A DNA stretch of 64,000 nt from Verrucomicrobiota bacterium (GTDB lineage: Bacteria > Verrucomicrobiota > Verrucomicrobiia > Palsa-1439): contig PLZV01000057.1 of the NCBI GenBank assembly GCA_003152315.1, forward strand, positions 200,065-264,064, written 5' to 3'. Shown here piece after piece: positions 16,313-63,689 of this stretch. How positions within the stretch are numbered: the stretch's first letter is position 1; the number at the start of each line of letters is the position of its first letter. The notes below the pieces were generated by a model. The model had not been told where the DNA came from and made no database searches. It worked only from the letters and a program-made list of their open reading frames with translations. Position numbers and translations under genes: made by a program.

Positions 16313-16579
16313 CGTGCGAGTGTAGCGCTTTAACCACGCTGACTGATTCAGTACAGCGCGCTTCCGAATCCGGGCGTCAGCGAGAAAATCTTGACGTGAC
16401 GGAATCATTTGCGCATGCGGTAGTTGCGGGATATTCACGCAAGCGTCGCGAGGTTGGCACGGCGGATGTTAATGCTCTGTCAACCGCGCGCGATGGTGCG
16501 CGACACCGAAGTGGAAGCAGTCGGTGTCGCCCCTCACCAACACCTTCGCCAAAGGCCTACCTTATCCCGTCGGAAGCTG

Positions 16580-16613
16580 AAAGCCCTCGTTGGAAACAAC
16601 GAGGGCTTTTTTT
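16580..16613 (+). terminator. Rho-independent terminator-like hairpin with T-run
   Basis: AAGCCCTCGTTG-GAAA-CAACGAGGGCTT followed by TTTTTT. It lies 270 bp after the ECF sigma stop and 20 bp before the anti-sigma start. Confidence 0.6.
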
Positions 16614-16632
16614 GCCGCCAACGTATTATTAG

Positions 16633-20088: not shown

Positions 20089-20091
20089 TCC

Positions 20092-32685: not shown

Positions 32686-33370
32686 CAGGACAAGCCATTC
32701 GGAGACCGGCTTGTTTAATAGCTGTTTTGAATCCGCTTAGGTAGAAGAGAAGGTTTTTTATCCCAGCCATATTTCCCTTGCCCAACAGGGCATACGACAA
32801 CCCAACATCTTTCCAAGCCACTCGAATCAACTTATGACCCGATAACCTTAATTGGAGGCGCGTCGTAATAAATCCTATGGCCCAAGTCAAGTCCGAAGCG
32901 AAAATAACTGCTGTTAAGTAGTTTCCGTCGTCATCTTTACCTCTGTAAATGAGGCAAAAACCCTGTAACACATTCGGCATCAATTAAGTGGCGGATGGCA
33001 CGTACCACAGCAGAAGTGAATCATCATCGGGATAACATCACTCAGGGTACCGCCCCCAAGTCGCCCCATCGTCCCTGACTTGTTCGACACAGTGCCGCGT
33101 TTCGCCACGGCACCCAAAACGAGCCTGTAAGCCAAGAAGATGCTTGCATTTTGCTCAAAGTTGCTGACATTAATCTCCTCCCATGGCGAGGGGAGCACGC
33201 GGGTCGGGTTGGGTCGGTGGATTTATTTTGGCAACCGGCTAACGCTTTAACTCTGGCTGTTTCGACTGCGTGCAGGTCTCCTGTTCGGACTTCCTTTTCC
33301 CGCCTGTGCGGTGTGCCCTGTATTCCATGCGAGTGAATGCGGAACACGTAAGAAAAGAAAAGGAAACTTC

Positions 33371-37527: not shown

Positions 37528-37603
<76 letters not shown>

Positions 37604-44062: not shown

Positions 44063-44137
44063 TCCGCAGTAGCTCAATGGTGGAGCAGCGCACTGTTAAT
44101 GCGCGGGTTGTAGGTTCGAGTCCTACCTGCGGAGCCA
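44063..44137 (+). tRNA. tRNA-Asn (anticodon GTT)
   Basis: Acceptor TCCGCAG/CTGCGGA, D stem GCTC/GAGC, anticodon stem GCGCA/TGCGC with loop CTGTTAA, T arm GTAGG-TTCGAGT-CCTAC. Discriminator G and CCA. Confidence 0.9.
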
Positions 44138-49000: not shown

Positions 49001-50763
49001 CAAGTCTCCCGTAGAATGTCCGCACTTGCGAGCGTTTCGGCAATATTTCCATAAAGAAACAGCGCCGTGCCCGTCGTTAGCATTGAAGGATGTTCCCTGC
49101 TGGCGATCACGGATAGGTGTTGCTGCGCCACCTGTTGCACTTCTTGAGTCAGCTTTCCCTCAGCGGTGAGAGATGTGAGTATGCTGCCACAGCCGGTTAC
49201 AAACTGACTCTCTTCTTCACCGAGTTGAATGATTTCCAGTTCGACACCGCGCTGAAGCGGAAGATAATCAACCAACCTGCCGCCCGCTTGTTTAGCTTGC
49301 TGAAATAAATCAAGCCACTCTATCCCTACTTTGGTTAGCAGCGGATTGTCACGGCTGGCGGATGTATTAACTGGATTTGCAATCCTCAATTCTCCGGACT
49401 CCAGCAGAGCCTGAACCTTTCGCATCGCGTCGATAATACTCGGTTGGTGAGGCACAGCGTCTTCAATTTGTCGATGCAATGCGTGTGTGATGCTCGGCGG
49501 CAAATACAATGGGGCAAATTCTTTTTCGACGATGTCAAGTATGTCCAATTCTGCTGCCAAAAGAACAGAGCTTATGTCTAAGTAAAGGCGGCTCGGAGAA
49601 AGGGTGCCCGAGGTGGCGCCACGCCCGCCGTATCTAATAAAAACTGGCGATGACTGCCCCAACATTTCGTCGCTGCTGTGGAAACGTTCGTGGTAAATCG
49701 CTCCGAGCGCTTTGTTTACGATATGGAGTGGAACACGACCCTGCCGGTATAGTTGGTTCACTTCCGTTAGCCGCGCTCGTTCCGTTTCTCCCTGTTTCAA
49801 CAAATCGGCTAGAGTGACGGTCCAAATGGGGCCATCTTTTCGTTCCGCTGCCTTCGTAAAATCCGGATGAAGCGTTTCAAGCATGTCTTCCCGGTTCAAA
49901 CGAAACGCTAGATCGTAGGCAGTAACTACAAACTCGGCCGAACGCTCGCCACTCTTAACGGCTTTGGAAAGTAGTTCCTGCGCCAGCGGTGAATCCTCTA
50001 CGTAGGTCGCACGAGCCAGTTGTAGAAGCTGCTTTGGGTCGGCATCCTTCCGTGAAAGAATAGCTCGCGCTCCTTCTATCACTCCCTTCGTATCACCGGC
50101 AGCCAGTCTTAGACCAACTAGTTGGTTCAAGTCCTCCAGTAAACCGGTCTCCCGTGCCACCTGCTCAGCCTCGCGGAGCGCTTCGTTAATTAAGCCGAGT
50201 TGTTTTTCGCATTCCACTCGCCAACGCTTTAGATCAATCGGTAATTCCCCATTCGGAAAGAGACGCTCATTGGTGTTGAGCAAGTTCAAGCACTGTTCGT
50301 GTCTCGCGGCGTTGAACACGCCCATGAGCGCAATCCTTAATGCAGCGGGCGTACCTACCAGAGTGAGTAGGTCGTCAGCATGATCGGCAACAAATATCCA
50401 CTCCTTCTGTTGTAGTTTCACTTCACACAACTCGAATAGGTGCAACCCATCCTTTGTTCTGGTGTACAAATCCTCAAGATACGCACCGAGACGGCTTGGG
50501 TCCTTTGTTTGCTTGGCGATTTCTCGTAGAGCGACCGTTTCTAGGGCTATTCGATGTTCTGGGTCATTGATATTCGCAGCGAGAGAGAGGGCCGCTTCCG
50601 GATCACCGCCGGCAATCACGGCTTGTCCTTTCCAAAACAACCAGACACTTTCTTCGCCATCATCCACAAACTTCTGGCGTGACTCATCGACGACTTTCCC
50701 GAGTTGCGCCGCATCGCCTTTGCTGAGTAGCAACGTGAACAGACCGGCCAGCTGAGCTTTCAT
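46018..50763 (-). CDS. Giant (1581 aa) uncharacterized protein; no P-loop, protease or nuclease motif recognisable by eye
   Basis: Single uninterrupted ORF. A 4-bp ATGA overlap with the upstream PNP-TPR gene suggests translational coupling. Its composition looks AT-richer than the core. Confidence 0.7.
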   Translation of the reverse strand: MKAQLAGLFTLLLSKGDAAQLGKVVDESRQKFVDDGEESVWLFWKGQAVIAGGDPEAALSLAANINDPEHRIALETVALREIAKQTKDPSRLGAYLEDLYTRTKDGLHLFELCEVKLQQKEWIFVADHADDLLTLVGTPAALRIALMGVFNAARHEQCLNLLNTNERLFPNGELPIDLKRWRVECEKQLGLINEALREAEQVARETGLLEDLNQLVGLRLAAGDTKGVIEGARAILSRKDADPKQLLQLARATYVEDSPLAQELLSKAVKSGERSAEFVVTAYDLAFRLNREDMLETLHPDFTKAAERKDGPIWTVTLADLLKQGETERARLTEVNQLYRQGRVPLHIVNKALGAIYHERFHSSDEMLGQSSPVFIRYGGRGATSGTLSPSRLYLDISSVLLAAELDILDIVEKEFAPLYLPPSITHALHRQIEDAVPHQPSIIDAMRKVQALLESGELRIANPVNTSASRDNPLLTKVGIEWLDLFQQAKQAGGRLVDYLPLQRGVELEIIQLGEEESQFVTGCGSILTSLTAEGKLTQEVQQVAQQHLSVIASREHPSMLTTGTALFLYGNIAETLASADILRETCKNFQVYIEPREAANIRAGLKRVEEQRNLQEWLRQLRDRINLGLAADRYKFIGVSNSLKPDRATQTWGPDAACLEELLHAKSASGSYVWIDDRFINAFSKCGELPVVGLLEILNELRRRKVLDQTSYFRKLHQLRKGNFRYVPLEKEEILFDLHNATERDGKIIETPELSVLRRYVASCLQDRDSLRMPAQMGKGSQPGEINVLTGLFAAAGEAIRSLWCDEKITDGAAIARADWILYNLWYDCGATPRLIGLAPHSAQERELMGGTIALLYIQAPTRLSSTDEKGPMLRAGYFDWLQNRFSTDWESNKTLGRQLSRLFEAMSPAKSKSKKRDKVLQVLLSDLYANLPETIRSHMSISSRALKRIGIKEHRVVVVANFKFEDKEFWQAAKKAVQGSVERITARDPLQEFTMRFISDADGETLRLSTGTPEKTFRMSDPLFEVLRPDVLTREKVLITHREWFDCNAQTHERQVQRLARLGDPSERITRIRHWRNNSAASFYANLEAQLAERKSLHLSDFEPPPSQGLLNHLRLPQETKPGQSATAFEAAAKSLVDEEGFAEAFLRVASLPIAVPGAIWEAHAKLSLTEQSAWLEDALSHSVSPVSRLHLLGIALSGGSERRPIAQRLLDSLLGPEGEIDYSALDKILRWTVLHLEHRHDTKNWSSFAILSASWLHATRLYTLLRKRSSKEKVAEFFEKAAQPVPNELFGSRDELRGDVAHPRQINRSTFLSRGIAAALTQARIRSTDFPGLEEKAVGLCFFKVEDKWVQRIEFLADPALQENALGSFLGGDQGETLASLIGPEPAKLLGSNQILTNAEAVLSDLLGKPDQPSKWVIAFGTLGRTKAPDSLRDKVRTFIMSINFVDLEALEPSSLRVALFTIINQVNRLDDREAAKRVKAEVQKLFHRIALSEKEMQTKPNHMATFIECAELLALRFHDPATAAREMADFLFEGIVEWPAVANNLQPGFTTLAYRLPLQVAVEFWKLIFKIRQTAA

Positions 50764-52700
50764 TGTGACACCTCCAATTCAACTGCAACTTCGCGAATAT
50801 TCTCCTCTAGGTTGCTGATGTAATCTCTGGCTGAAGCCCAAAGAATGGCAATCGGATGAGTGGGGTCTCTCTCCAATAACTCGGCGCAGTACTTTTGCGC
50901 CTCTGCATGTTTTTCAGCATCATTGGCAAGACATGCAAGTCGCCATCCCTCAATTTCTCGTCGCGCTATCGGCTCCATACCATTCGGATTCAATAACTCG
51001 GCGAAAAGTGCTTCGGATTTCCTTAGCTGTTTTAGAGTGTCCTTGTCTCGCTTTACTAATTTGAGATCGGCCGGAACTGGCCAAAATTTTGGAATACGTT
51101 TGAATAAAGCCGGGGACAGACTATCAAAGTAACCGATGATCGCTGACGCGAACCTCACGCTAAACCATTGGGGGTGCTCAGTAACGGCCAACTGAATCTC
51201 TCGCTGAGCGTCTGTCAGCCTTCCCTCTCCTAATAATGCGAGTGCATACAAACGTCTAGATTCCGTATCCGGCGTAATACCAATGGGCGGTTTTGGATAT
51301 TCATCGAGTACATCCCGTGATTTTCCAGAGTCCAATAAAAAGGCGAGCTTAACATTCCAAGCGTCCAGGCTTTTGACTTCCTGAAGGTTTGCCAGAGCGG
51401 TGCGTGCGCCTTTTTCGTGATAGGTGATTAGCGCTTGCAACACCGGCATGCCTCTGTCTCCGTCTTGTTTCTGAGCCTCAAGGGCCAAGGTTTTGGCAAT
51501 GTTTACATCGCTATCTAGAGCGAGAACTAAACTTGCTTCCAATCGAAGCGCTATCGCGCGAGTGGTGGGAGTCAAGATCTTCCAATCTTGGCCTTCCTTC
51601 AATGCCTTTAGTTTTTCCATGGCTTCGCGTCCACCGCTGACTCGCCACCCCTCACGAATTGACTCGATGTCACGGACACGGGCGGCGCTCAATGCTTGTG
51701 CTAGCTTTTCAAATTGGTCGTTGATGAATTCGGAAGCAAGCGGCGAGAGTAAACGTTTTTTTCCGTCCTCATCTTCCTGCGGCGAAATGGTGGCGGCTGA
51801 AATACTGCTTTGAGTTATTGAGTTTGGACGAAGGAGGTCTATATCACACCCGTCATAAAGAAAAAGGTCCAGATATACGGCAGCAGCGCAAGAGGCTAAA
51901 TCGTGAAACCTGTCCCCCTTGAATTCGTCGGCGAAGTCCGAAATGCCTCGTATCACCATCCATGGTTTGGGTGGGTCCCGATCCTCACACGCCCTAGAAA
52001 AGCCGCCCGCTTCCATTTCTGCGGCCCGGATGCCTTGGTGATACTTGCTCATCTTATCAAAAGCCGAACCGTCTCGAAGTAAGTCATCGGCAGAAGCTAT
52101 TGTGCAATCGCGAATGGTAGGAATTGTTGCCACGTTGTCGCGGTATACATCTTCCTCACCTTTAGGCAGTTCTATTGCTTTCCCAAATTGATTTGTGAAT
52201 TGAACTGCAAAGCTCTGACCGTCGAGACGAAAATTCTGAATCATCTGCGTGACGGGGGGACGGAGGGCTCTATTAACGGGACGAGGATGTCTCTCGCCAT
52301 TTTCGACAACATTTATGCTCAAGTCCGCGATATCGCGAGCCACCGCCACGTCACCAATTTTTAACTTTCCTCGCCAACCCGCTGCAATGCCTAAGAGAAT
52401 TAGGATGGCAGGGTCATAATATGTGAGTAGGCGCGTTGTCGCTGCGCTGGCGCTGGCTTGCGAGGCGCTCCCAATGCAGTGAACCACAATTGTTAGATCG
52501 CGATCTTGAAGCTTTGAGTAGCGGGTGGTTTCCCAGTACAGGAAACCGTCTTTAGGAATTCGATCTCGTGATTCGATCTTTAGTACGCGCTGAACTGCGT
52601 GCAGTTCCGTCCCGATGACGGTCAAGACAGCCACGTCGATTGTTTTAACTTCGTGCACGGGTCGTGTAACGCGCTCCTCCAAACCCATAAAATACAGCAT
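50760..52700 (-). CDS. PNP/MTAN-like nucleoside phosphorylase/nucleosidase domain fused to C-terminal TPR-like helical domain
   Basis: The N-terminal ~270 aa align by eye with E. coli MTA/SAH nucleosidase (Pfs) motifs. VAVLTVIGTELHAV matches IGIIGAMEEE. CIGSASQASASAATTRLL matches SGIGKVAAALGATLLL. ILILLGIAAG...KIGDVAVARD matches VIINTGSAGGL..KVGDIVVSDE. AAEMEAGGFSRAC matches AVEMEATAIAHVC. MVIRGISDFAD matches VVVRAISDVAD. The C-terminal ~370 aa are helical-repeat-like. Confidence 0.7.
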   Translation of the reverse strand: MLYFMGLEERVTRPVHEVKTIDVAVLTVIGTELHAVQRVLKIESRDRIPKDGFLYWETTRYSKLQDRDLTIVVHCIGSASQASASAATTRLLTYYDPAILILLGIAAGWRGKLKIGDVAVARDIADLSINVVENGERHPRPVNRALRPPVTQMIQNFRLDGQSFAVQFTNQFGKAIELPKGEEDVYRDNVATIPTIRDCTIASADDLLRDGSAFDKMSKYHQGIRAAEMEAGGFSRACEDRDPPKPWMVIRGISDFADEFKGDRFHDLASCAAAVYLDLFLYDGCDIDLLRPNSITQSSISAATISPQEDEDGKKRLLSPLASEFINDQFEKLAQALSAARVRDIESIREGWRVSGGREAMEKLKALKEGQDWKILTPTTRAIALRLEASLVLALDSDVNIAKTLALEAQKQDGDRGMPVLQALITYHEKGARTALANLQEVKSLDAWNVKLAFLLDSGKSRDVLDEYPKPPIGITPDTESRRLYALALLGEGRLTDAQREIQLAVTEHPQWFSVRFASAIIGYFDSLSPALFKRIPKFWPVPADLKLVKRDKDTLKQLRKSEALFAELLNPNGMEPIARREIEGWRLACLANDAEKHAEAQKYCAELLERDPTHPIAILWASARDYISNLEENIREVAVELEVSQ

Positions 52701-53113: not shown

Positions 53114-53365
53114 ATGTTAACTTCTCCTATGTTAGCAGAGCGACATATGCAACACCAGTCGAAACGAAGTGACCGCGAGTACTTGACCTCCACGGAGGTC
53201 GCTGACCTGTTGAGGGTGTCCTTGCGGACAGTAGTCAATCTGCGTCGTCGCCGTGTCATTCCGCACCTCAAGATTGGCAGGTTGGTGCGCTTCTCCCGTG
53301 AGCAAGTGGAGTTAGCGCTGAGATCATACACGGTCACCCAAGTGCAGACTCATGTAGGCGAATAA
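53114..53365 (+). CDS. xis: Excisionase / AlpA-MerR-like HTH DNA-binding protein (start ambiguous: 53114, 53129 or 53147)
   Basis: The block YLTSTEVADLLRVSLRTVVNLRRRRVIPHLKIGRLVRF is typical of excisionase-family HTH. It lies immediately upstream of the integrase. Confidence 0.55.
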   Translation: MLTSPMLAERHMQHQSKRSDREYLTSTEVADLLRVSLRTVVNLRRRRVIPHLKIGRLVRFSREQVELALRSYTVTQVQTHVGE

Positions 53366-53378
53366 AGTCTTGGAACGA

Positions 53379-54572
53379 ATGACAACCAGCGTGGCAATCA
53401 AAGTCAATCGGCGAGGCAAGGTTTGGCCGCTGATTTACCGGCGCCGGTATCCCTCTGGCTTGGCGTCCTTCGTTGTTGATGCGGGGAAGCAGTCAGATGG
53501 AAGACGGATTCGTCGGACGTTCCCAACGCGAGGGGAGGCGGAGACTTTTGCCGAGCAGAGGCGGACCGAGAGGGCGAACGAGGGTACCATGACGAACGCT
53601 GTTCCGTGGGAGATTCGCCGGGAGGCAGCCATCTGCGCGGCCAAACTCTCGCCGTATCGTGCGAAACTTACTGAGGCAGTCGATTACTATGTTCAACAAG
53701 TGCTGCAGTACCGGACTTCACCCAGCGTGTCAGACGTGATCAAGCGAATGCTCGATGAACTGAAGGCCGGAGGACGGCGCGAAACAGCCATCCGCACGTT
53801 GCGCTGTTTCCTCGGTGGAGCCTTTACCCTCCAGTTTGGTGAGCGACAGTTGTCGACGGTTGCCCTGGACGAACTCAACGTCATCTGTTTGGTGCCCGAT
53901 CTGCAACCCCGCACCCGTCTGAATCGCATTCGGATGGTTTCGCAACTTTACAACTACGCGGTCAAGCACGGCTGGGTCAGTGGCAATCTGGCCGAACGCA
54001 TCGTCAGGCCTATTCTGGAGAAGAAGGAACCGGGTTATCTCGATGTAGATGCTGCGCGACGCTTCCTCGAACACGCGGATGAATTTGGTTTGTTGCCCTA
54101 CGCGGCCATCGGTCTGTTCGCGGGTGTTCGCAGCGCTGAATTGCTCCGCCTGGACTGGTCGGCAGTCAATCTTATCGACCGGGAGATCACCATCGGATCG
54201 GAGATCGCCAAGACGCGATCGCGCCGCGTCATCCCGTATGGTGACGACCTCGCGGCTTGGCTCAAGCGATGTGCGCGCTGCAGCGGACCGGTGGTGAATC
54301 CCAATAATTTTGAAGGCAACTTTGGCAGGCTCAAACGCGCGGCCGGAATCAAAAATTGGCCACAGAACGCGCTCCGCCACAGCTTTGCGAGCTATCATGT
54401 CGCCCAGTATCGGGATCCGGTACGGACGGCCTATCTGCTGGGGCATCGGGGTGGCACCGATATGCTCGACAGCCATTACCGCGGACTCGTTAGCAGCGCC
54501 AAGGCAAAGGAATTCTGGGCGCTGCGTCCCAGTGGCCAGATGGTGCAGGCCGCGCTAAGGGACGCGGCGTAG
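53379..54572 (+). CDS. int: Tyrosine-type site-specific recombinase/integrase (second copy)
   Basis: ATG at 53379. The catalytic region carries RSAELLRLDW...HSFASYHVAQ...GHRGGTDMLDSHYRG. Confidence 0.8.
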   Translation: MTTSVAIKVNRRGKVWPLIYRRRYPSGLASFVVDAGKQSDGRRIRRTFPTRGEAETFAEQRRTERANEGTMTNAVPWEIRREAAICAAKLSPYRAKLTEAVDYYVQQVLQYRTSPSVSDVIKRMLDELKAGGRRETAIRTLRCFLGGAFTLQFGERQLSTVALDELNVICLVPDLQPRTRLNRIRMVSQLYNYAVKHGWVSGNLAERIVRPILEKKEPGYLDVDAARRFLEHADEFGLLPYAAIGLFAGVRSAELLRLDWSAVNLIDREITIGSEIAKTRSRRVIPYGDDLAAWLKRCARCSGPVVNPNNFEGNFGRLKRAAGIKNWPQNALRHSFASYHVAQYRDPVRTAYLLGHRGGTDMLDSHYRGLVSSAKAKEFWALRPSGQMVQAALRDAA

Positions 54573-54584
54573 GGAGATATTCTC

Positions 54585-56828
54585 ATGGCGAACCTTGACG
54601 AAAAACTTGATCGGGAGACGATCCGTGTGGCAGCGCTGACTAGGCGCATGTGCGTAGAAGTGGGCTGCGGCCGACTTTGTCCAGAAGCGTATGCGGTCGG
54701 GATTCTCTCGTTTGGTCCAAATGCCGCCACCCAAGCGGCAGTCGAGATCGGCGGGAACCTTAACGTGCTAACCGACCGCTGTCGGAAAGTATTGGAATCC
54801 CGTATGAGTATTCATGAGAATCCGGCGGGCGGCTATTTTCAAGTCAGTCTCGATGATTCGTGCGGTGCTATGTGGCGTACGGCGGCGCAGTATCGGACGA
54901 CAGCGCGAGCACCACGTATCGGAGCGTTCCATGTTCTGCTCGCCATCCTTAAAACAACCCCGGCCGTCGCCTCGGTCTTCGAAGGCGTTGGGATCGGGTT
55001 GCCGGCTTTGGAAGCGAAGCTGCGCATCCGCCCCCGACAGGAAAGTCCGCGCGCACCCGCGGCCGGGTTGCCGGCCAGTATTGGTAACCGGCCCGACGAA
55101 CTACCGGTGCGGACTGATAACCCGTTGGCAGCATTCTGCATTGACCTCACGGCTATGGCCGCCGCCGGCCAACTCGACCCGGTAGTTGGTCGTGGGCGCG
55201 AGATCGACCGTATCATCACCACGCTGTGTCGGAAGAAAAAGAACAACCCGTTATTGGTGGGCGCGGAGGGGACAGGTAAGACGGCCATAGTCGAGGCCCT
55301 CGCTCAACGTCTCATCCTCGGCCACGTACCGCATCAAATTGACGGACGACGAATCTACTCGGTAGACATGGCGCGGCTCGTTGCCGGCACACTATATCGT
55401 GGCCAGTTTGAGGAGCGTCTCAAGGCGTTGCTGGATGCCGCTCGACAGAACCGCAACTGCATTTTGTTCGTCGACGAGGCGCACACGATTATTGGTGCCG
55501 GCAGTGCCGTCGGGACTCTCGACGCCAGTAACATCCTGAAACCGGCGCTGGCCCGCGGAGAGATCACCTGTATTGCTGCCACGACCGAGACCGAGTACCG
55601 GAAGTACTTCCGCAAAGACAAGGCGCTCGATCGTCGGTTCCAGCGCATTGCAGTCAACGAGCCAACGACGGAGGAAACAGTTGCCGTGTTGAAAGGACTG
55701 CGCGTCTCACTGCAGCGGTACCACCACTGCACGATCACCGATGAAGCGCTCACGGCGGCAGTCGAGTTGTCCGGGCGCCACATCACCGACCGTTCTTTCC
55801 CCGATAAAGCGATCGACGTCATCGATGAAATGGGAGCCCGGTTCGGCGCGACCGGACTACCATTGGGCCGGGAGCAAGTGGCCCGCACGGTCGCCGACCA
55901 ACTCGGGGTTCCGTTGGAGACGGTCTTGCCAAACGATTCTCACCGCGGGCATCTCGTCGAAACCGAACTAAGGCGATTGGTGGCCGGGCAGGGGAGTGCG
56001 ATCGAAGCCGTAGTGCAGGCGGTGCGTCGCGCGTTCTTGCCCTTGCGCGATCCGCTCCGTCCGCTGGCGAGCCTGGTCTTTGGCGGGCCGTCCAGTGTCG
56101 GCAAGTCCTACATCTCGCAGATTGTCAGTCGGCACCTCTATGCTTCGGCACCCCTCATCCGCATCAATTTGGCGGAGTACGCCGAGAAACACAATGTCAG
56201 TCGGCTGTTTGGTTCACCGCCGGGCTATATTGGGCACGGCGACAGCAATCAACTCACCGACCGGGTCATGCGCCATCCGCACAGTGTGGTGCTGTTCGAC
56301 AATCTCGACAAGGCGCACCCCGAAGTGTTGATGGCGATCATGGAATTGCTCGACGCCGGCATACTCACGGACGGGCAGGGGAATGAGGTAAGTTTTCGGA
56401 GCGCGTTCATCATCCTGACGACGGTCGCTGGCAGCACTGGGTCGGTGAAGGAGGCAGTTGGGTTCGGGACGGCGAAGTCTGACCGTAACCGTCGCCATCT
56501 CATAGAAGCCTGCCGGAACCTTTTTGGCGACGAGTTTGTCAATCGAATCGACGACTTTATCCCGTTCACTCCACTGGGGCCGTACGAACTGGCGGGAGTT
56601 GCCCGCTTGACGTTCGAGGAGGTTTCCCGGCGGTTGGCCGGGAATGGCGTGACGTTGCGATGTGATGACGAGGTGTTCCAGCAGCTTGGACGCGAGAACG
56701 GCCATGCGCGCGCTGTGCGCGCGGCTATCAGGAACGAGATAGAACCGCTCATCTGCGATATTCTCGCCTGCGTACACACGCTAGGCGTCCACGTTCGATG
56801 GAAGGACGGTCGCTATGTCGTCGAGTGA
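54585..56828 (+). CDS. ClpA/ClpC-like double-AAA+ ATPase with Clp_N repeat domain; D2 Walker B Glu replaced (DNLD instead of DEIE)
   Basis: N-terminal Clp_N-like repeats. D1 has Walker A GAEGTGKT and Walker B ILFVDEAH. D2 has P-loop GGPSSVGKS and Walker B VVLFDNLDKAH. There is no ClpB-type middle domain. Confidence 0.8.
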   Translation: MANLDEKLDRETIRVAALTRRMCVEVGCGRLCPEAYAVGILSFGPNAATQAAVEIGGNLNVLTDRCRKVLESRMSIHENPAGGYFQVSLDDSCGAMWRTAAQYRTTARAPRIGAFHVLLAILKTTPAVASVFEGVGIGLPALEAKLRIRPRQESPRAPAAGLPASIGNRPDELPVRTDNPLAAFCIDLTAMAAAGQLDPVVGRGREIDRIITTLCRKKKNNPLLVGAEGTGKTAIVEALAQRLILGHVPHQIDGRRIYSVDMARLVAGTLYRGQFEERLKALLDAARQNRNCILFVDEAHTIIGAGSAVGTLDASNILKPALARGEITCIAATTETEYRKYFRKDKALDRRFQRIAVNEPTTEETVAVLKGLRVSLQRYHHCTITDEALTAAVELSGRHITDRSFPDKAIDVIDEMGARFGATGLPLGREQVARTVADQLGVPLETVLPNDSHRGHLVETELRRLVAGQGSAIEAVVQAVRRAFLPLRDPLRPLASLVFGGPSSVGKSYISQIVSRHLYASAPLIRINLAEYAEKHNVSRLFGSPPGYIGHGDSNQLTDRVMRHPHSVVLFDNLDKAHPEVLMAIMELLDAGILTDGQGNEVSFRSAFIILTTVAGSTGSVKEAVGFGTAKSDRNRRHLIEACRNLFGDEFVNRIDDFIPFTPLGPYELAGVARLTFEEVSRRLAGNGVTLRCDDEVFQQLGRENGHARAVRAAIRNEIEPLICDILACVHTLGVHVRWKDGRYVVE

Positions 56829-57237
56829 AGTCAGCAATCATCGCTGCCAGACCGTCGGGTTCCCCAGCGCGTTGTTGGTGCGGGTGGTGAAGGCCAACGC
56901 GACGATCACGTACGAAGGGATAAGTCCCGACGGTGATCTCACGTTCACAGTACCTATGCGGGACTTCGGGCTGAGTCGCACCGTGATGGCGCGTACCCCG
57001 ACCGCGCAAACGAGCTTCTTCGTGAACCTGGTGGGCGAGCTGTTGGTGCGCAAGAACATCGCGGTGTTTGCCGAGGTGCTAGAGAAGCTGGATCCGAAAG
57101 ACTACGACCGGATGGTCAATTGTTTCCGGCACCGGCACTTTGGGATGACGGTGGAGACGAATGATCTGCTCCGCTTCCGGTTCCACAGCTCGCTGGTGCA
57201 GCACATCCTGACCGAAGATCTGGAAGGTGTCGTATGA
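56815..57237 (+). CDS. Hypothetical 140-aa protein, translationally coupled to the ClpA-like gene
   Basis: 14-bp overlap with the upstream gene. The stop overlaps the next ATG (ATGA). Confidence 0.45.
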   Translation: MSSSEVSNHRCQTVGFPSALLVRVVKANATITYEGISPDGDLTFTVPMRDFGLSRTVMARTPTAQTSFFVNLVGELLVRKNIAVFAEVLEKLDPKDYDRMVNCFRHRHFGMTVETNDLLRFRFHSSLVQHILTEDLEGVV

Positions 57238-57386
57238 GCGTCGATCAGTTCCGGCATGAATACTTCCCAATCCCGCACCTGCACCAAGCCTTCGCTCTCC
57301 TGTCGTCCCGGTTTCTGGCTGCCCGGAAGAATCACATCGACAACAGCAACGGGGAGCTTGCTGGTTTCCTGCAGGATGCGCGATGA
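57234..57386 (+). CDS. Putative 50-aa micro-ORF bridging the 140-aa gene and the beta-CASP nuclease gene
   Basis: Its ATG overlaps the previous TGA (gtATGAgc) and its TGA overlaps the next ATG (cgATGAgc). It is absent from the ORF track because it is under 60 aa. It encodes MSVDQFRHEYFPIPHLHQAFALLSSRFLAARKNHIDNSNGELAGFLQDAR. Confidence 0.3.
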   Translation: MSVDQFRHEYFPIPHLHQAFALLSSRFLAARKNHIDNSNGELAGFLQDAR

Positions 57387-59044
57387 GCGTGACCATCACG
57401 TGCTTCGGGGGCGCCGGTGAAATCGGCGGGAACAAGATGCTAATCGAAGATGGCGGGAAGCGTCTGATGCTGGACTTCGGTATGTCGTTTGGCCGAACCG
57501 GCGATTACTTCGACGGGGTGTTTCTCACCAAACGTGCTGGACGCGGTTTGCTTGACCCGTTGTCGTTAGGATTGGTGCCCCCGCTCCGCGGATTGCTCCG
57601 TGACGACCTCGTCCCAGTTATGGGCGCGCGCGATAAAGAAATGTTTTGGCGGCATTGGCAGGAGAAATTCCCGGTGGCATATCGGGACCTGCGTCGTGAT
57701 GGTCTGGCCGTCGATGCGATCTTGGTGAGCCATGCGCATCTCGATCACATTGCTGACTTGGAATATGTCGCGGCGGAGATTCCCCTGGCCGGCACGTGCA
57801 CAACCGCATTCATTAGCAAGGTGCTACAAGACGTTGGGGGCGGATCCGGCGCGGCCTATCTTCAGCCTGCCGCTGTGAATGGCGGCGGTGTCCTGCACAC
57901 CGATCGTGGTGCACCCAGTCAACGCCGTCCGTGGCGGTTCCTAGATGGGGTGCCCGGCGGTGAATCTGTCGATGATCCGCTCGCCACGGCGCAATCGTTT
58001 TGGGATGCGTCCGGCAGTAAGGGACGCGAGCTAGTGGTCGCTCCCTGTCATGCGTTTGATGGGCACGTCGGTCCGTGGCGAATTCGTTGGTGGCCTGTGG
58101 ACCATTCAATCCCAGGGGGAGCCATGTTTGCAATTGAGACGGACGCGGGGTGGGTGGGGTACAGCGGCGATATCCGGTTCCATGGCCAGCTTGGCCCGCT
58201 GACGTGGCAGGCAGCCGAGGAATTGGCAGGGCTCAAACCGGTCGCATTGTTGTGCGAGGGCACCCGATTGACTGAACCTAATGCAACAACCGAAGCACAA
58301 GTGTACGAGAACTGCTTGCGTGTGGTGCAGAATGCGGCAGGCAAATTAGCTGTGGCGGATTTCGCACCTCGTAACATCGCGCGGTTTGAGATCTTCGCGC
58401 GGATTGCAGAACAAACCGGACGTCGCCTACTCGTGCAACCCAAGGATGCCTATTTGCTGAGAGCCGCGCATTTGGCCGATCCAGACTCGAATGATCTGAT
58501 GGCGCCGACACACATAGGAATCTACGATGACCCGAAGGCCGTCTATCGGAAGTACGAGGCCGCAGTGCGGGCGCGGTACTCAGATCGCGTCGTGTCACCA
58601 GATGAAGTTCGGCAACACTTTGGCGATTACATCCTGGCATTCAGCTTGACGGACATGGCTGATTTGCTCGACTTGGAATACCTCGTTGGCCGTCAGCTTA
58701 GCGGTGTGTACATTTTCTCAAATAGTCCCGCCTATGACGATGAACAACAAGTCGATCTGGTCCGCTTGTGGAATTGGGCGCAGTACTTAGGGCTGACCGT
58801 CGTCGGACTGGAACCCCGGCGCGACGCTGACGGCCGGGTCGTGGCCATGGACGTCCAGCGCGGCTATCATGCGTCCGGCCACGCTGGAGGCAATGAACTA
58901 AAAGAATTCGTGCAGCGTATCGCACCGCGAACATTGATACCCATCCACACACAGGCCGCCCATCTTTGGCCGCACATGCTTGCCCACCAGTTCATTCAGG
59001 TTGTCATGCCACGAACTGGAGAAATCGTGATTCTGAGTCGCTGA
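57383..59044 (+). CDS. MBL-fold metallo-hydrolase of the beta-CASP nuclease family (RNase J / CPSF-like)
   Basis: MBL motif 2 HAHLDH (LVSHAHLDHIADL). The C-terminal beta-CASP motif C is HASGHA (YHASGHAGGNEL). Confidence 0.75.
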   Translation: MSVTITCFGGAGEIGGNKMLIEDGGKRLMLDFGMSFGRTGDYFDGVFLTKRAGRGLLDPLSLGLVPPLRGLLRDDLVPVMGARDKEMFWRHWQEKFPVAYRDLRRDGLAVDAILVSHAHLDHIADLEYVAAEIPLAGTCTTAFISKVLQDVGGGSGAAYLQPAAVNGGGVLHTDRGAPSQRRPWRFLDGVPGGESVDDPLATAQSFWDASGSKGRELVVAPCHAFDGHVGPWRIRWWPVDHSIPGGAMFAIETDAGWVGYSGDIRFHGQLGPLTWQAAEELAGLKPVALLCEGTRLTEPNATTEAQVYENCLRVVQNAAGKLAVADFAPRNIARFEIFARIAEQTGRRLLVQPKDAYLLRAAHLADPDSNDLMAPTHIGIYDDPKAVYRKYEAAVRARYSDRVVSPDEVRQHFGDYILAFSLTDMADLLDLEYLVGRQLSGVYIFSNSPAYDDEQQVDLVRLWNWAQYLGLTVVGLEPRRDADGRVVAMDVQRGYHASGHAGGNELKEFVQRIAPRTLIPIHTQAAHLWPHMLAHQFIQVVMPRTGEIVILSR

Positions 59045-59502
59045 CAGGCACACCGAAGGCATCGCGAAACTCTTCTAGGAATTGAATGCGACGGCCGACA
59101 GCGGCAAGGCCCCAGGAACCGCCCCGATGTCTGTCCTTGGTCCTGCCAGCGGCGCGCCCTTCTTGCATTGGCATAAAAGCCGTCCGCAGTTACCAACGCG
59201 AGCCGTTTGACCCCAGTCGGTCATCTAATAACAAACGACGGTAAATCAAAAGAGCCTTGGGCCCGTTCGCACAGCATGAGCATGACTACTGCATTTTTTA
59301 ATTGACTATTCAGCTAAAAAATGCAATACTATGACTCATGATGTAAAAAGCCCAGCGCTTGGCGTAGCCGCCTTACGCTGGGCTTAAACAAGGCCAGCAG
59401 AGCTGACCCGTGTGAACAATGGGACTTTAGCTCATGCGTGGCCGTATGACAAGAACGGATTGGCGATCGGCTACGGTCGCCAGTCACTTGGAGAACAGAA
59501 GC

Positions 59503-59841
59503 ATGAGTAAAATCGAAGACCTAACATTAACCGGGAAATCTGGAACAAAGTACACGTTCCAGATGTACCCTTGGGAGACGGAATTCCGAGCCCTTGGCGG
59601 TGTCTATATCATCACCAAGCGGACGGCGACCCGCGGTGGGGGGACGCATTCGCTTATCTACATTGGACATACTGGAAACCTGGCTGAACGTTTCAACAAC
59701 CATCACAAGGCCGACTGTTGGGAGCGGCATGGCGCCAATTGCATTGGCATACTGCTAGAAGAGAGCGAGACGAAACGCCTCGAGATCGAAGCCGACCTCC
59801 TGGCGGCGTACGATTGGCCCTGCAACGAGGTGGGTCAGTAA
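59503..59841 (+). CDS. GIY-YIG nuclease-family small protein
   Basis: ATG at 59503. It has GVYIIT, then R, then LIYIGHTGNLAERFNNH, matching GIY-(10-11)-YIG, Arg and Asn spacing. Confidence 0.5.
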   Translation: MSKIEDLTLTGKSGTKYTFQMYPWETEFRALGGVYIITKRTATRGGGTHSLIYIGHTGNLAERFNNHHKADCWERHGANCIGILLEESETKRLEIEADLLAAYDWPCNEVGQ

Positions 59842-59901
59842 GATGAGACCCTAGGCGACCGCCGATTCCCGTCGGCGGTCGCCAAGCCGAAAGTTTAAAA
59901 A

Positions 59902-60495
59902 ATGAAGAATCTTGGAGAGATCGCGGAAGTCCGAGCGGGATACACGGTTCGCAAACCGGAGAAGGGCGTACCCACGGTCAGGTATCGAGTGTTGCAAATC
60001 AAAGACGTGACGGCGGACGCCGCATTGGACACCGCGAATCTGGCGACCATGAACTTGCCGCCAGTATCGGACCGCTATTTTTTGAAACACGGGGACATTC
60101 TCTTCTGCGCGCGCGGCGCGCGCAATCGAGCAGCCGTGAGCGAGGTCGAGATGGAACAAGTCGTTGTCGGCGCCCAGTTCTTCGTGATTCAGGTTAAGGG
60201 GGATCGCCTGTTGCCCCGGTATGTAGCCTGGTACATCAACCAGCCGACCGCGCAGCAGTACTTCAGTGAGCGCGCCTCTGGAAGTTACGTGCGGATGATC
60301 CTCGTCGATGATCTGCTGCATCTACCTGTACCGGTCCCGCCACTGAAAGTTCAGCAGCAGATTGCTGCGTTGCATCAACTGGGGTTGCGGGAGCAGAATC
60401 TCCTCGAACGGCTCCGTGTGAAGCGGATGGAACTGCTTAACGGGTTATGCATCGACGTTGCCGGAGGACACAAGCGAATTTCGAAAGGAGTCTAA
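59902..60495 (+). CDS. hsdS: Type I restriction-modification specificity subunit (short, single target-recognition domain)
   Basis: The N-terminal LGEIAEVRAGYT and the C-terminal conserved helical region (LPVPPLKVQQQIAALHQL) are typical of HsdS. It sits immediately upstream of hsdM. Confidence 0.6.
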   Translation: MKNLGEIAEVRAGYTVRKPEKGVPTVRYRVLQIKDVTADAALDTANLATMNLPPVSDRYFLKHGDILFCARGARNRAAVSEVEMEQVVVGAQFFVIQVKGDRLLPRYVAWYINQPTAQQYFSERASGSYVRMILVDDLLHLPVPVPPLKVQQQIAALHQLGLREQNLLERLRVKRMELLNGLCIDVAGGHKRISKGV

Positions 60496-60497
60496 AT

Positions 60498-62045
60498 ATG
60501 AGTGGCACTATTTCCCAAGATCAAATCAACCGGGCTGCATGGGCGGCGTGTGATACATTCCGGGGCACGCTCGATCCGGCCAACTACAAGGACTACATAT
60601 TGACAATGTTGTTCTTGAAGTATCTGTCCGACCTGTGGTTGGACAAGAAGGAAGAATACGAGCGACGTTACGACGACGACAAAGAGCGGGTCGAGCGGGC
60701 GCTTAGTCGCGAGCGGTTCATCGTACCAGAGGTGATCCTCCGGGACGATCAGAACTCCAAGAAAATTGTTGATCGTTTCCCCGCCACCTATTACAGCCTG
60801 TACGAGCGCCGTGATCGGACCAACATCGGCGAATTGATCAACATCACCTTGGAGCGCATTGAAGAAGCGAACAAGGAGAAGCTGGAAAACGTCTTCCGCA
60901 ACATAGATTTCAACAGCGAGCCATTCCTGGGTCAGACCCGTGAACGCAACCGCTGCTTAAAAAGCCTGCTGGAGGACTTCCACCGGGACGAACTTAACTT
61001 CCGCAAGGATCACGTCGGCCACCTCGATATCCTTGGCAACACGTACGAATACCTAATCGGCAATTTCGCTGCCGATGCCGGGAAAAAGGCCGGGGAGTTT
61101 TATACCCCCGCCTATGTGTCTATTCTACTGGCGAAACTGGTTCGGCCAAAACCGGGAGATCGTATCGGCGATCCAGCTTGCGGTTCTGGTTCACTCTTAC
61201 TCAAGGTGGCGAACGAGGTGCCGGATGGGAACTGCTCTCTGTACGGCCAGGAGATGAACGGCAGTACATGGGCGCTTTGCCGGATGAATATGTTCCTTCA
61301 CGAACGCGACAGCGCCCGTATTGAATGGGGCGATACGTTGAACAACCCGAAGCTCATTGAGAATGACGCACTGATGAAATTCAACGTGGTCGTGGCCAAT
61401 CCTCCATTCTCTCTCGACAAATGGGGTGCGGAAGATGCCTCGGGCGACAAGTTCAATCGCTTTTGGCGCGGCGTCCCGCCAAAATCCAAAGCTGACTATG
61501 CGTTCATCAGCCATATGATCGAGACGGCTGTGGAAGGCGACGGCCGGGTCGCTGTGGTCGCGCCGCACGGGGTGCTGTTTCGCGCCGGCGCCGAAGGCAA
61601 GATCCGGCAAAAGCTCATTGAAGAGAACCTGCTGGAGGCGGCCATCGGATTGCCGGCCAATTTGTTCTTCGGAACCGGTATTCCCGTTGCGGTCCTACTC
61701 TTCAACAAGGGTAAGAAGACTACGGATACACTGTTCGTGGATGCCAGCCGCGAATTCGAGGACGGCAAGAACCAGAACAAACTGCGCGCGCAAGACATCG
61801 ATAAGATCATCAGCACCGTCCGGGTGTTCAAGACCGTCGAGAAGTACGCCTACCGGGCCACGCTCGCCGAAATCCGCGAGAACGATTTCAATCTCAACAT
61901 CCCGCGGTACGTGGACACTTTTGAGCAGGAGACAGAAGTGGATGTTATTGCAGTGCAACGAGAAATCGATGATTTGGAGAAGGAACTTGCCGAAGTGCGC
62001 AAGGAGATGACTAGACATCTCGCTGAACTTGGATTTGCGAAATAA
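60498..62045 (+). CDS. hsdM: Type I restriction-modification DNA methyltransferase subunit
   Basis: HsdM_N region. The SAM-binding motif DPACGSGSLL and the catalytic motif VVANPPFS are present. Confidence 0.9.
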   Translation: MSGTISQDQINRAAWAACDTFRGTLDPANYKDYILTMLFLKYLSDLWLDKKEEYERRYDDDKERVERALSRERFIVPEVILRDDQNSKKIVDRFPATYYSLYERRDRTNIGELINITLERIEEANKEKLENVFRNIDFNSEPFLGQTRERNRCLKSLLEDFHRDELNFRKDHVGHLDILGNTYEYLIGNFAADAGKKAGEFYTPAYVSILLAKLVRPKPGDRIGDPACGSGSLLLKVANEVPDGNCSLYGQEMNGSTWALCRMNMFLHERDSARIEWGDTLNNPKLIENDALMKFNVVVANPPFSLDKWGAEDASGDKFNRFWRGVPPKSKADYAFISHMIETAVEGDGRVAVVAPHGVLFRAGAEGKIRQKLIEENLLEAAIGLPANLFFGTGIPVAVLLFNKGKKTTDTLFVDASREFEDGKNQNKLRAQDIDKIISTVRVFKTVEKYAYRATLAEIRENDFNLNIPRYVDTFEQETEVDVIAVQREIDDLEKELAEVRKEMTRHLAELGFAK

Positions 62046-62095
62046 CATAGATAATGCTATGTATTGTACGTGATATACGCGAAATAAGTAACAAT

Positions 62096-62701
62096 ATGCC
62101 GAATATGCTTACATTAGACGTCATAGAGAAAGCCCTAAGGTTGCTTTCGCAGCGTCTTGACCTGATCCAGAGCGACCCGCTGCAACTTGTTGTTTGTGGC
62201 GGCACCGCTCTCATTGCTACCAATCTTCGGCAAGGCACTACAAAGGATGTAGACATTGTAGCACTAATCAATGCACACAACGAGCTTCTCAGCCCGGCTC
62301 CATTGCCAGCGGTCCTTCTTGAACAAGCCGACCAAGTCGCGCGCGACCTTGGATTGTTTGACAACTGGCTCAACAATGGGCCCAGTAGCGGCGATGGCGG
62401 GTTGTATCAGATGGGGCTCCCGGACGGATTCGTCGCCCGGCTCACGCCACGAAAGTTTGGATCTCGCCTGACGGTCCATTTCATTGGGCGACTCGACCAG
62501 ATTCATTTCAAACTCTACGCTGTTGCCGATCAACAAGGCGGCGTTCATGTGGCCGACCTCCGCGCCCTCAAACCTGCCGACGCTGAACTCGAATCCGCTG
62601 CCCGTTGGGCAATGACGCACGACGTTTCCGATAATTTCAAAATGGTCTTGAAGGAGACTCTCAGAGAACTCGGCCATGAATCAGTCGCTCAAAGAATTTA
62701 A
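62096..62701 (+). CDS. Nucleotidyltransferase-fold protein resembling AbiEii/DUF1814-type toxins (start uncertain, 62054 or 62096)
   Basis: The segment VCGGTALIATNLRQGTTKDVDIV is GG-x14-DVD, which fits a minimal NTase motif. It is embedded between hsdM and the second hsdS. Confidence 0.4.
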   Translation: MPNMLTLDVIEKALRLLSQRLDLIQSDPLQLVVCGGTALIATNLRQGTTKDVDIVALINAHNELLSPAPLPAVLLEQADQVARDLGLFDNWLNNGPSSGDGGLYQMGLPDGFVARLTPRKFGSRLTVHFIGRLDQIHFKLYAVADQQGGVHVADLRALKPADAELESAARWAMTHDVSDNFKMVLKETLRELGHESVAQRI

Positions 62702-63689
62702 ACAACAATACCGAGGGCTTTTGCTGAACTTCATCTGGCGGCAGTGGTCGGCCCTGGGAGTGGCCGGCCACTCAGCAGGCGAAGACACCTGGGTGATCGA
62801 CCCCGAGCCACTACTCTTGTTCACATGCACCATTGGCCGTCACGATCCTCGTGTGTTCGACGAAGTGCTCGATTGGCTCCAGGAGAATGGCCGGTTCATC
62901 AACATTCTCCGTCTCAAACGGATCCTTGGGAAAGAGAAATTCGCTGGCGCCAGCGTGCTGGCCGCCATCGCGGGACAAATGAGCAAAGGCACCGGCGTCG
63001 CCAAATGGAAACTATTGGCCGAGCATTCCAGACGCTCCACAAAGCCGGAGCCGTTGTTTTTCCAAGAGGACGGCCACCCGCTACCAGTCGTGGGCGAGCC
63101 TGAGCCGCAATTCTTGCAGTACGGTTTCAAGCGCGGACCACTGCGCCTGCGCGGCTACTCCCAGAAGTTCCGGCCGACGGAACGGACGAACCTCACCCTG
63201 CAACTTCGGGCGCTGCTTGGCGTGAATAGCCGGTGTGAAGTCGTCCTCTATCTATTAACGCACGATTCGGCGCACCCGTCGCAAATCGCCCAGGACGCGT
63301 ACTACTTCGAGCGGGCCGTCCAGAACACGTTGGTGGACATGAGCCAGTCGGGCGTCATTCAGTTGCGAACTTCCGGCCGCGAGAAGCATTATTGGCTCAA
63401 GCACGAGCACTGGGCAACGCTGTTGAACCGCCCCGATCCGTCTCCGAGATGGGTTACCTGGCCGCCCTTATTCAGCGCGCTGGAACGCATCTGGCTCAAA
63501 GTAAGTGACCGACAACTGTCGACGCTCGATCCGTTGCTCCAATCGTCGGAACTGCGGCAGCTGATGGTCGAAGTGCGCCCGTCTATCGAACGCGCCGGAT
63601 TCGATAGGGGGTTGTCCGATGACCGCCAATATCTCGGCGAGAAATACCTACCGGTGTTCTTGGACGACATCACCAGGCTTCTTGGCTAA
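62676..63689 (+). CDS. Hypothetical protein (possible partner of the NTase-like gene)
   Basis: The ORF overlaps the upstream gene by 26 bp. No motif recognised. Confidence 0.4.
   Translation: MNQSLKEFKQQYRGLLLNFIWRQWSALGVAGHSAGEDTWVIDPEPLLLFTCTIGRHDPRVFDEVLDWLQENGRFINILRLKRILGKEKFAGASVLAAIAGQMSKGTGVAKWKLLAEHSRRSTKPEPLFFQEDGHPLPVVGEPEPQFLQYGFKRGPLRLRGYSQKFRPTERTNLTLQLRALLGVNSRCEVVLYLLTHDSAHPSQIAQDAYYFERAVQNTLVDMSQSGVIQLRTSGREKHYWLKHEHWATLLNRPDPSPRWVTWPPLFSALERIWLKVSDRQLSTLDPLLQSSELRQLMVEVRPSIERAGFDRGLSDDRQYLGEKYLPVFLDDITRLLG

Follow-up and report, generated by a model that had tools for sequence, protein, structure and literature searches.

A 64,000-nucleotide stretch of DNA from a Verrucomicrobiota bacterium (assembly GCA_003152315.1, contig PLZV01000057.1, positions 200,065 to 264,064 of the forward strand; referred to here as the window) carries a compact operon encoding a Clp-like AAA+ ATPase, a 140-residue protein that we call p140, a 50-codon open reading frame (ORF) and an RNase J-like beta-CASP nuclease. 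We find that this operon is one copy of a rare cassette, that its 50-codon ORF lies where most of a second ATPase gene, AAA-422, has been deleted, that p140 has its relatives in phages, and that the cassette occurs in defence islands whose recombinases and defence genes differ from locus to locus. On balance, we think it probable that the cassette serves in anti-phage defence. The operon consists of the following ORFs:

54585–56828, + strand, Clp-like AAA+ ATPase gene, 747 aa
56815–57237, + strand, p140 gene, 140 aa
57234–57386, + strand, 50-codon ORF, 50 aa
57383–59044, + strand, RNase J-like beta-CASP nuclease gene, 553 aa

Operon structure and forms of the cassette

The four ORFs are chained by overlapping starts and stops, as had been described from the sequence alone: the Clp-like/p140 junction is ATGTCGTCGAGTGA, a 14-bp overlap, and both the p140/50-codon and 50-codon/nuclease junctions are ATGA. 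A purine-rich Shine-Dalgarno-like element lies 5′ of every one of the four starts. A promoter and terminator scan of the window between 52.6 and 59.9 kb gave counts no higher than the shuffled expectation. The earlier description of a tight operon that joins a Clp/Hsp100-type AAA+ protein to an RNase J-type beta-CASP nuclease is supported. The overlaps proved to be conserved in the closest clade, that of locus L005, and not in the more distant cassettes, where gaps of 12–25 nt, and once of 140 nt, separate the genes; close packing is common to all cassettes, overlapping or not. The stoichiometric co-expression proposed in the sequence-only reading was derived from overlaps that the family as a whole does not keep, and that proposal is not upheld.

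Comparison of the four proteins with all fetched loci by tblastn identified about eight distinct cassettes, all of them metagenomic, in the following forms:

L005–L007 and L025: four genes (Clp-like/p140/AAA-422/nuclease), the closest relatives of the window
L010, L031 and L032: four genes, damaged; the Clp-like gene of L010 is truncated, and L031 and L032 start at p140
L001–L004/L029, L008/L009, L028 and L033: three genes with the third slot empty; L033 is partial
L030: another third gene, a 184-aa ORF aligned to the p140 family by hhalign (probability 69%, E 4.6e-5)

These forms indicate an invariant core of Clp-like ATPase, p140 and nuclease, with a variable third slot that in L030 holds a probable p140 paralogue. 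Identity to the window is 88% for the nuclease of L005–L007 and 93% for the p140 of L025. L010 retains only 115 aa from the C-terminal end of the Clp-like gene (5961–6308), next to intact p140, AAA-422 and nuclease genes, and so shows a second, independent kind of cassette decay.

The cassette is rare. A search with the window p140 returned 8 matches among 5.8 billion proteins, and a metagenome scan returned nine loci, two of them of the phage type described below. The cassette was absent from 185,579 species-representative genomes, in which a scan with the nuclease gave four stand-alone Chloroflexota genes. The window allele itself was found unchanged in at least eight places (19 contigs) from several metagenomes. 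All three core genes are under purifying selection when compared to L005, with ratios of non-synonymous to synonymous substitution (dN/dS) of 0.10 for the p140 gene, 0.125 for the nuclease gene and 0.20 for the Clp-like gene.

The 50-codon ORF as a deletion scar of AAA-422

In the nearest relatives (L005–L007 and L025), the position of the 50-codon ORF is occupied by AAA-422, a gene for a 422-residue classical AAA protein with a second region of homology (SRH) motif and a lid_3 domain (Pfam AAA and AAA_lid_3) that has ATGA overlaps at its junctions; AAA-422 is likewise intact between p140 and the nuclease in L010. BLASTP against the L005 protein matched the 50-residue product to AAA-422 residues 1–15 (15/15 identical) followed by residues 388–422 (28/35). 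At the DNA level, window positions 53224–57277 aligned by blastn with L005 4726–8779 at 88.9% identity, and positions 57280–59021 with L005 9898–11642 at 87.3%. The DNA alignment, together with blastn, showed that 1116 bp present in L005, corresponding to 372 of the 422 codons, are absent from the window, in frame, with the deletion junction at about 57278/57279 and with the ATGA overlaps to both neighbouring genes preserved. Because the 50-codon ORF matches both ends of a gene that is intact in the nearest relatives, the alignments indicate that it is an in-frame deletion remnant of AAA-422 and represents no gene family.

Further comparisons are in line with this interpretation. The C-terminal 35 codons of the scar contain 6–7 non-synonymous changes, compared to a single one between two intact copies of AAA-422, and their dN/dS of 0.29–0.48 against 0.057 in the intact copies suggests relaxed constraint, from small counts. 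Other copies of the ORF were recovered only from eight metagenomic places in which the operon is 100% nucleotide-identical to that of the window, and which are thus the same clone. No homologous ORF was found in any other cassette by tblastn against all fetched loci, nor did the product match any family in Pfam or NCBIfam, or in PADLOC at E ≤ 0.1. The four-gene arrangement with a micro-ORF, put forward in the sequence-only reading as a possible system, is therefore missing from every homologous locus other than identical clones, and of its two small proteins without a known family the 140-residue one stands as such, while the 50-residue one is the AAA-422 remnant. That the ORF is instead a genuine, selected micro-protein working in a four-part complex is hardly credible. 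It is open, preceded by a GGAAGG Shine-Dalgarno-like element and flanked by ATGA on both sides, so that it is probably translated, and its first 15 codons differ from L005 by three changes, all synonymous; set against this are its colinearity with both ends of the 422-residue gene, its confinement to nucleotide-identical clones and the lack of any match in the family searches named above. The case offers a caution for micro-ORF discovery, as a translationally coupled 50-codon ORF can be a mere in-frame deletion scar.

The intact AAA-422 proteins weakly match IetA (1.8e-9) and TRIP13 in PADLOC. Their Walker B position reads ED, not DE, as LVILEDLD or LVIIEDLD (L005 8736–10004; L010 6733–8004), a state common to two versions that are 53% identical.

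p140 and its phage relatives

p140 is present in every cassette. It belongs to no family in Pfam, NCBIfam or PHROGs and has no PADLOC match at E ≤ 0.1. Its AlphaFold2 (AF2) model, with a mean predicted local distance difference test (pLDDT) score of 81.7, gave no significant match in a fold search. When 1.84 billion cluster representatives were searched with a p140 profile, 200 relatives emerged, of which 132 had E ≤ 1e-10. Outside the cassettes, all relatives with readable context sit in phage contigs that also encode a large terminase (phrog_2, 6.8e-31), ribonucleotide reductase, endolysin, thymidine kinase and inteins. Scanning IMG/VR with an alignment of phage-type p140 identified eight viral contigs, while neither the cassette-type p140 alignment nor the nuclease found anything there; a tblastn search of GenBank phages with phage-type p140 gave no match.

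In all of the approximately 15 phage loci checked, the p140 gene is followed directly by an orthologous ABC-type ATPase gene whose product resembles PtuA, AriA and AbiLi in PADLOC. The arrangement (L016–L024, L026 and L042–L049; for example L016 8001–9746) is p140, often an ORF of about 58 residues, and the ABC ATPase. This gene pair, strictly conserved in a clade of uncultivated phages, has the endolysin gene on one side and the terminase region on the other, and it is not represented in PHROGs or among GenBank phages.

The phage proteins of L021 and L026 are 52–56% identical to the window p140, and in a neighbour-joining tree they form one group with the cassette p140s at 100% bootstrap, the cassette proteins being monophyletic by themselves in only 2.5% of replicates. 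Since the tree mixes cassette and phage proteins, the p140 gene has moved between phage and cassette. Capture from phage into cassette would be the more parsimonious direction, because the phage diversity of p140 is much deeper and its synteny in phages is constant.

Several p140 relatives depart from the simple form. Tandem-duplicated p140 proteins occur in P0157 and P0257, which is consistent with the probable paralogue pair in L030. In P0210 and P0254, distant members of the family carry a fused C-terminal YbjN domain; homology between p140 and YbjN was considered and rejected (hhalign probability 0.8%), leaving YbjN as a fusion partner only.

The Clp-like ATPase has a degenerate second ring

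Pfam identified two AAA+ modules in the Clp-like ATPase (AAA, AAA_lid_9, AAA_2 and ClpB_D2-small), in agreement with the sequence-only reading. The NCBIfam models for ClpB (576 bits, cut-off 1232) and ClpA (TIGR02639; 567 bits, cut-off 993) matched far below their cut-offs, and the best match among solved structures in the PDB was Staphylococcus aureus ClpC (4e-142). The motifs of the two rings, D1 and D2, are as follows:

55260–55283, + strand, D1 Walker A, GAEGTGKT, canonical
55461–55484, + strand, D1 Walker B, ILFVDEAH, canonical
56082–56108, + strand, D2 Walker A, GGPSSVGKS
56286–56309, + strand, D2 Walker B, VVLFDNLD (DN for DE), degenerate
56412–56432, + strand, D2 sensor-1, TTV (TSN in ClpC), degenerate
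56454–56468, + strand, tripeptide loop AVGFG, aligned with FAGFG of ClpC

The D2 Walker B sequence DNLD in place of DE, pointed out from the sequence alone, is thus confirmed, and it is not peculiar to the window: DNLD, TT(V/I) and (V/I)GF are kept in four homologues at 61–89% identity, and a fifth, in L030, has DNLD, TTV and LGF. The D2 arginine finger (VNRID) and sensor-2 (ARAV) are retained, as are pore-loop tyrosines (LYRG and GYIG). With the Walker B glutamate and the sensor-1 asparagine both lost, established AAA+ enzymology predicts that D2 probably binds ATP without hydrolysing it, as the sequence-only reading had proposed; D2 would then act in assembly or docking. D1 looks catalytically competent. 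The [LIV]GF loop takes the place of the loop by which ClpC docks ClpP, and may contact ClpP or some other partner. Given the ED state of AAA-422 and the DN state of D2, each cassette ATPase has one non-canonical Walker B.

The alignment to ClpC skips from ClpC residue 401 to 469 while the query runs from 419 to 425, and the ClpA model aligns in one piece, the ClpB models matching in two separate stretches. Because the M-domain region of ClpC is skipped and ClpA aligns unbroken, the architecture is that of ClpA, lacking a long coiled-coil M domain. The Clp_N repeats that had been read in the sequence were not recovered, as Pfam found none in residues 1–180 even at E ≤ 1. The ClpC alignment begins at residue 112, and the NCBIfam ClpA and ClpB models align from about residue 47–54 of the window protein. 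Since Pfam misses this region and NCBIfam aligns from about residue 50, the N domain can be called no more than a diverged form of Clp N. The N-domain cysteines C23, C32, C66 and C93 (window 54585–54870) are invariant among the cassette homologues at 61–89% identity and might form a metal or redox site.

The nuclease has an intact RNase J-like active site

The nuclease matched RMMBL (the "RNA specificity" domain, 1.7e-7) and Lactamase_B in Pfam, the NCBIfam RNase J model TIGR00649 below its cut-off (4e-21; 75 bits against 400), and RNase J in the PDB (7.8e-13), with which it aligns motif by motif. It contains an N-terminal GGAGEIGGN, HAHLDH (57731–57748), VDHS, GD and HASGHA (58868–58885), so that metallo-beta-lactamase (MBL) motifs 1–4 and beta-CASP motifs A–C, with histidines at B and C, are all present. 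Residues H117/H119/D121/H122, D240–H241, D263, E292 (motif A), H496..H500 and H522 are invariant in 60 homologues. The AF2 model (pLDDT 92.6) returned EF2904 (2az4) and bacterial and archaeal RNase J as the top Foldseek matches, followed by CPSF73-type proteins. The best structural matches were the cores of archaeal RNase J and EF2904, in chains of about 425–465 residues, and the C-terminal dimerisation domain of RNase J is lacking, motif C being at residue 522 of 553. Both sequence and fold therefore bear out the earlier assignment to the RNase J/CPSF-type beta-CASP nucleases, and the protein is predicted to be a ribonuclease of RNase J-like fold with an intact active site.

The nuclease has a family of its own with more than 1300 members, the majority stand-alone. 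One homologue, named "Verrucomicrobiae", is 67% identical to the window nuclease, and stand-alone relatives at about 50% identity occur in Chloroflexota and other phyla. Two more distant stand-alone relatives, both 35% identical, lie on megaplasmids, one among Avs2, Phd/VapC, GIY-YIG and type I restriction-modification (RM) genes (L050, Rhodothermus marinus pRMAR01) and one among CopG and MazE/PIN genes (L051, Thermus brockianus pTB1), which hints at a role in conflict for the nuclease family at large.

The cassette is found in mobile, defence-rich islands

Upstream of the operon, the window contains a helix-turn-helix (HTH) gene in addition to the following two genes:

53114–53365, + strand, HTH_17 (excisionase-type) gene; Pfam HTH_17 3.3e-13; shared with L005 from 53224 on
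53370–54572, + strand, tyrosine integrase gene; Pfam Phage_integrase 2.7e-10; 12 nt before the Clp-like gene

In L005 and L006, the order and spacing of integrase and cassette are the same as in the window, and the integrase has a dN/dS of 0.19 compared to L005, so the integrase is co-inherited with the cassette in this clade. Around the integrase-cassette block, a search for att-like repeats gave only short, chance-level repeats. The wider neighbourhoods differ between loci:

Window: match to a PN-superfamily effector (2.7e-46) upstream; GIY-YIG, hsdS and hsdM genes downstream
L001: a pair of large serine recombinases, in an island that measures about 10 kb and has mfd on one side and housekeeping genes on the other
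L005: on the upstream side, two genes for HsdM; downstream, the Lamassu components LmuA (8e-65) and LmuB (1e-127), followed by another integrase
L008: genes for an Eco57I-type methylase and for a T5orf172/ResIII protein
L010: DUF6088 with AbiEii, and an integrase

These neighbourhoods have in common only recombinases and defence genes, and in the window, L001, L005, L008 and L010, from a sample of about eight loci, the cassette is found as cargo of a defence island. Because the neighbours change at each locus among recombinases and defence genes, the cassette appears to be mobile cargo of defence islands and no housekeeping unit. The site between an integrase and a GIY-YIG/type I RM block, reported in the sequence-only reading, is as described, and its broader picture of a mobile, defence-rich island also holds: the cassette recurs in unrelated neighbourhoods beside differing recombinases and defence systems, which is not the pattern of a conserved housekeeping unit.

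Other features of the window island were also recorded. Upstream of the integrase, a block of low guanine-plus-cytosine (GC) content (about 50%, compared to about 59% in the backbone) at 46018–52700 on the − strand contains two overlapping genes, one for a 1581-aa protein with only a weak match to HTH_upstream_double_PIN and one for a 646-aa protein with PNP_UDP_1 and TPR, whose matches in PADLOC are the PN-superfamily effector (2.7e-46) and PDC-M60C; this gene pair looks like a separate candidate defence pair adjoining the cassette. Downstream, positions 59434–63689 encode a GIY-YIG protein (135 aa), a half-size HsdS (197 aa) overlapping HsdM (532 aa), a DUF6036 nucleotidyltransferase-like protein (215 aa) and an unassigned 337-aa protein, with no HsdR seen between the cassette and the end of the window. 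A tRNA-Thr(CGT) gene lies at 37528–37603 and a tRNA-Asn(GTT) gene at 44063–44137, about 2 kb before the low-GC block; the latter could mark the island edge. Farther away, a heavy-metal resistance cluster (8412–23373) comprises a CopA-type P-type ATPase (8412–10643), a DsbD/TsoB-like protein (10640–12340, − strand) and TolC/CusB/CusA-type efflux genes (17432–23373), and a 586-aa S8-family peptidase (33311–35071) has a weak match, far below the cut-off, to the anti-phage protein IteS (3.2e-8).

Proposed function and alternative explanations

In our judgement the cassette probably serves in anti-phage defence and reaches defence islands on integrative elements. In favour of this are its recurrence beside recombinases and defence genes in unrelated neighbourhoods, the purifying selection on the core genes, the conserved D2 and [LIV]GF states, the invariant catalytic residues of the nuclease, the phage relatives of p140, and the precedent of Hsp100 D2-type and AAA modules in known defence systems. 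It could act as an abortive-infection-type system with the nuclease as effector, in which the Hsp100 ATPase would gate the nuclease and p140 would be an adaptor or sensor. A phage cue might be relayed to the ATPase through p140, or the ATPase might remodel a partner that inhibits the nuclease, or degrade it, perhaps together with host ClpP by way of the [LIV]GF loop. Either route would free the RNase onto cellular and phage RNA. AAA-422 would be a dispensable accessory. Any particular gating scheme of this kind is much less likely than the defence role itself. Several points weigh against the proposal. The cassette matches no validated defence system, and the assignment is guilt by association from about eight loci. 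Two copies are damaged, that of the window by the AAA-422 deletion and that of L010 by reduction of the Clp-like gene to its 115-aa remnant, so some copies, including that of the window, may be non-functional. The nuclease family is not intrinsically defence-specific, since its stand-alone relatives at about 50% identity are found in ordinary chromosomal contexts in Chloroflexota. In ClpA, D2 is the main motor, and a non-hydrolysing D2 would make for a weak ClpP-feeding motor. Moreover, the adaptor role of p140 is a guess, because its fold gave no significant match, and the choice of RNA over DNA as the nuclease substrate is likewise presumed.

A bolder version of the defence proposal is that the cassette represents an immune system of a new class: p140, captured from a phage, would supply the specificity and signal to an Hsp100 with a dead D2, which would then unleash the RNase J-like nuclease. 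In such a system p140 might be a bait or mimic, either reporting the phage ABC ATPase partner or being displaced by it, and the nuclease could be released by ClpP-dependent destruction of an inhibitor. We consider this version a long shot.

The damage to the window copy raises the question of whether it is a decaying, non-functional relic in which the loss of AAA-422 was inactivating and the remainder drifts, a reading that is compatible with the others and that we hold to be doubtful while giving it some weight. The loss of 372 of 422 codons, the elevated dN/dS of the C-terminal scar (0.29–0.48 against 0.057 when intact, from small counts) and the truncated Clp-like gene of L010 as another type of decay all fit such a relic. 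However, natural three-gene cassettes exist in several lineages (L001, L008 and L028), from which AAA-422 seems dispensable, the deletion is in frame with both ATGA junctions preserved, the three core ORFs are full-length with every motif intact, and the allele persists unchanged in at least eight places (19 contigs) across several metagenomes. An unlikely alternative in our view is that the cassette serves the mobile element and not its host, either in addiction or stabilisation in the manner of a toxin-antitoxin or as a satellite-type module that interferes with a helper phage or exploits it, in which case the captured p140 would engage the phage ABC ATPase partner. Inheritance of the window/L005 cassette as one block with the excisionase-like and integrase genes at 12-nt spacing, the two serine recombinases that flank the L001 cassette in its island of about 10 kb, and the identity of p140 of up to 52–56% to phage proteins with which it intermingles in the tree are consistent with this possibility. 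On the other hand, the recombinase families differ by locus and none is near L008, which fits interchangeable cargo; the shared block has none of the replication or packaging genes typical of satellites; the adjoining genes are classic host-defence systems; and addiction and defence roles can coexist. Least plausible of these functions is a housekeeping one in RNA turnover or proteostasis, with a specialised Clp chaperone and an RNase J paralogue. Both large proteins do come from housekeeping superfamilies, and the nuclease has its stand-alone relatives in ordinary Chloroflexota contexts, yet both proteins fall far under the equivalog cut-offs, the cassette is as rare as the 8 p140 matches in 5.8 billion proteins and the approximately eight distinct loci indicate, its flanks are recombinases and defence genes in a neighbourhood that is new at each locus, and it is absent from the 185,579 species-representative genomes, barring distant stand-alone nucleases. 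We regard a housekeeping role as very improbable.

If the cassette does act in defence, it would add a double-ring Clp/Hsp100 unfoldase and an RNase J-type beta-CASP nuclease to bacterial immunity, where both are hardly represented, and should the bolder version hold, it would be the first defence system in which a Clp-type unfoldase gates a beta-CASP RNase via a virus-derived sensor. With p140, it also shows clearly how a host cassette can recruit a small protein from a phage family. Its natural variants, with four genes, with three genes, with a probable p140 duplicate, with AAA-422 deleted and with the Clp-like gene truncated, provide a ready deletion series.

Comparison with known systems

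In PADLOC-DB v2.0, p140, the 50-codon ORF product and the nuclease were unmatched at E ≤ 0.1 and the cassette fits no single system, which agrees with the earlier view that it lies outside known models. Full-text literature searches on Clp/AAA+ proteins in defence with beta-CASP or RNase J nucleases, on PDC-M37 and on Dodola returned no description of the combination. The Clp-like ATPase by itself matched PDC-M37B (2.7e-22) and DolB (1e-17) in D2 and IetA (1.7e-10) in D1. Dodola and PDC-M37 thus resemble the cassette in their use of an Hsp100 D2-type (AAA_2) module, but these matches are confined to D2 of the window protein (roughly residues 460–625), and the DolB and M37B models describe single-ring proteins of about 375–520 aa, whereas the window ATPase is double-ring. 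Unlike Dodola, the cassette has no match to DolA (DUF6414); its effector is a beta-CASP nuclease and it contains p140. IetAS (Gao_Iet) likewise pairs a classical AAA ATPase with a degradative effector in defence islands. The cassette, however, lacks the IetS S8 protease, its IetA matches are weak and domain-level, and the IetA-like AAA-422 is optional and deleted in the window.

Compared to the housekeeping unfoldases, the ATPase is closest in plan to ClpA and ClpC, with two AAA+ rings, no long M domain, pore-loop tyrosines and [LIV]GF at the ClpP-loop position. It differs in scoring far under the NCBIfam cut-offs, in its D2 changes from DE to DN and from N to V/I at sensor-1, both conserved, in an N domain not seen by Pfam Clp_N, and in being encoded on a mobile cassette with a nuclease and not with clpS or clpP; from ClpB and Hsp104 it is set apart by the absence of a coiled-coil M domain between D1 and D2. 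The nuclease shares with RNase J and EF2904 (2az4) the MBL plus beta-CASP fold and all motifs, including GGxGEIGGN and HxSGH. It is only 13–19% identical to RNase J, has large insertions in the MBL domain, lacks the C-terminal dimerisation domain and forms its own family.

The broadest likeness is to Septu (PtuAB), PARIS (AriAB), Lamassu and the HerA-nuclease systems, in which a nucleoside triphosphatase (NTPase) for sensing or gating is combined with a nuclease effector in defence islands, and the phage partner of p140 is itself a PtuA/AriA/AbiLi-like ABC ATPase. The cassette contains none of the defining proteins of these systems: its ATPase is an Hsp100 double ring and not of the ABC/SMC or HerA type, and its nuclease is of the beta-CASP type and not HNH, Toprim or PD-(D/E)xK. 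The comparison therefore points to a rare and undescribed combination that appears to follow the same NTPase-plus-nuclease logic of defence.

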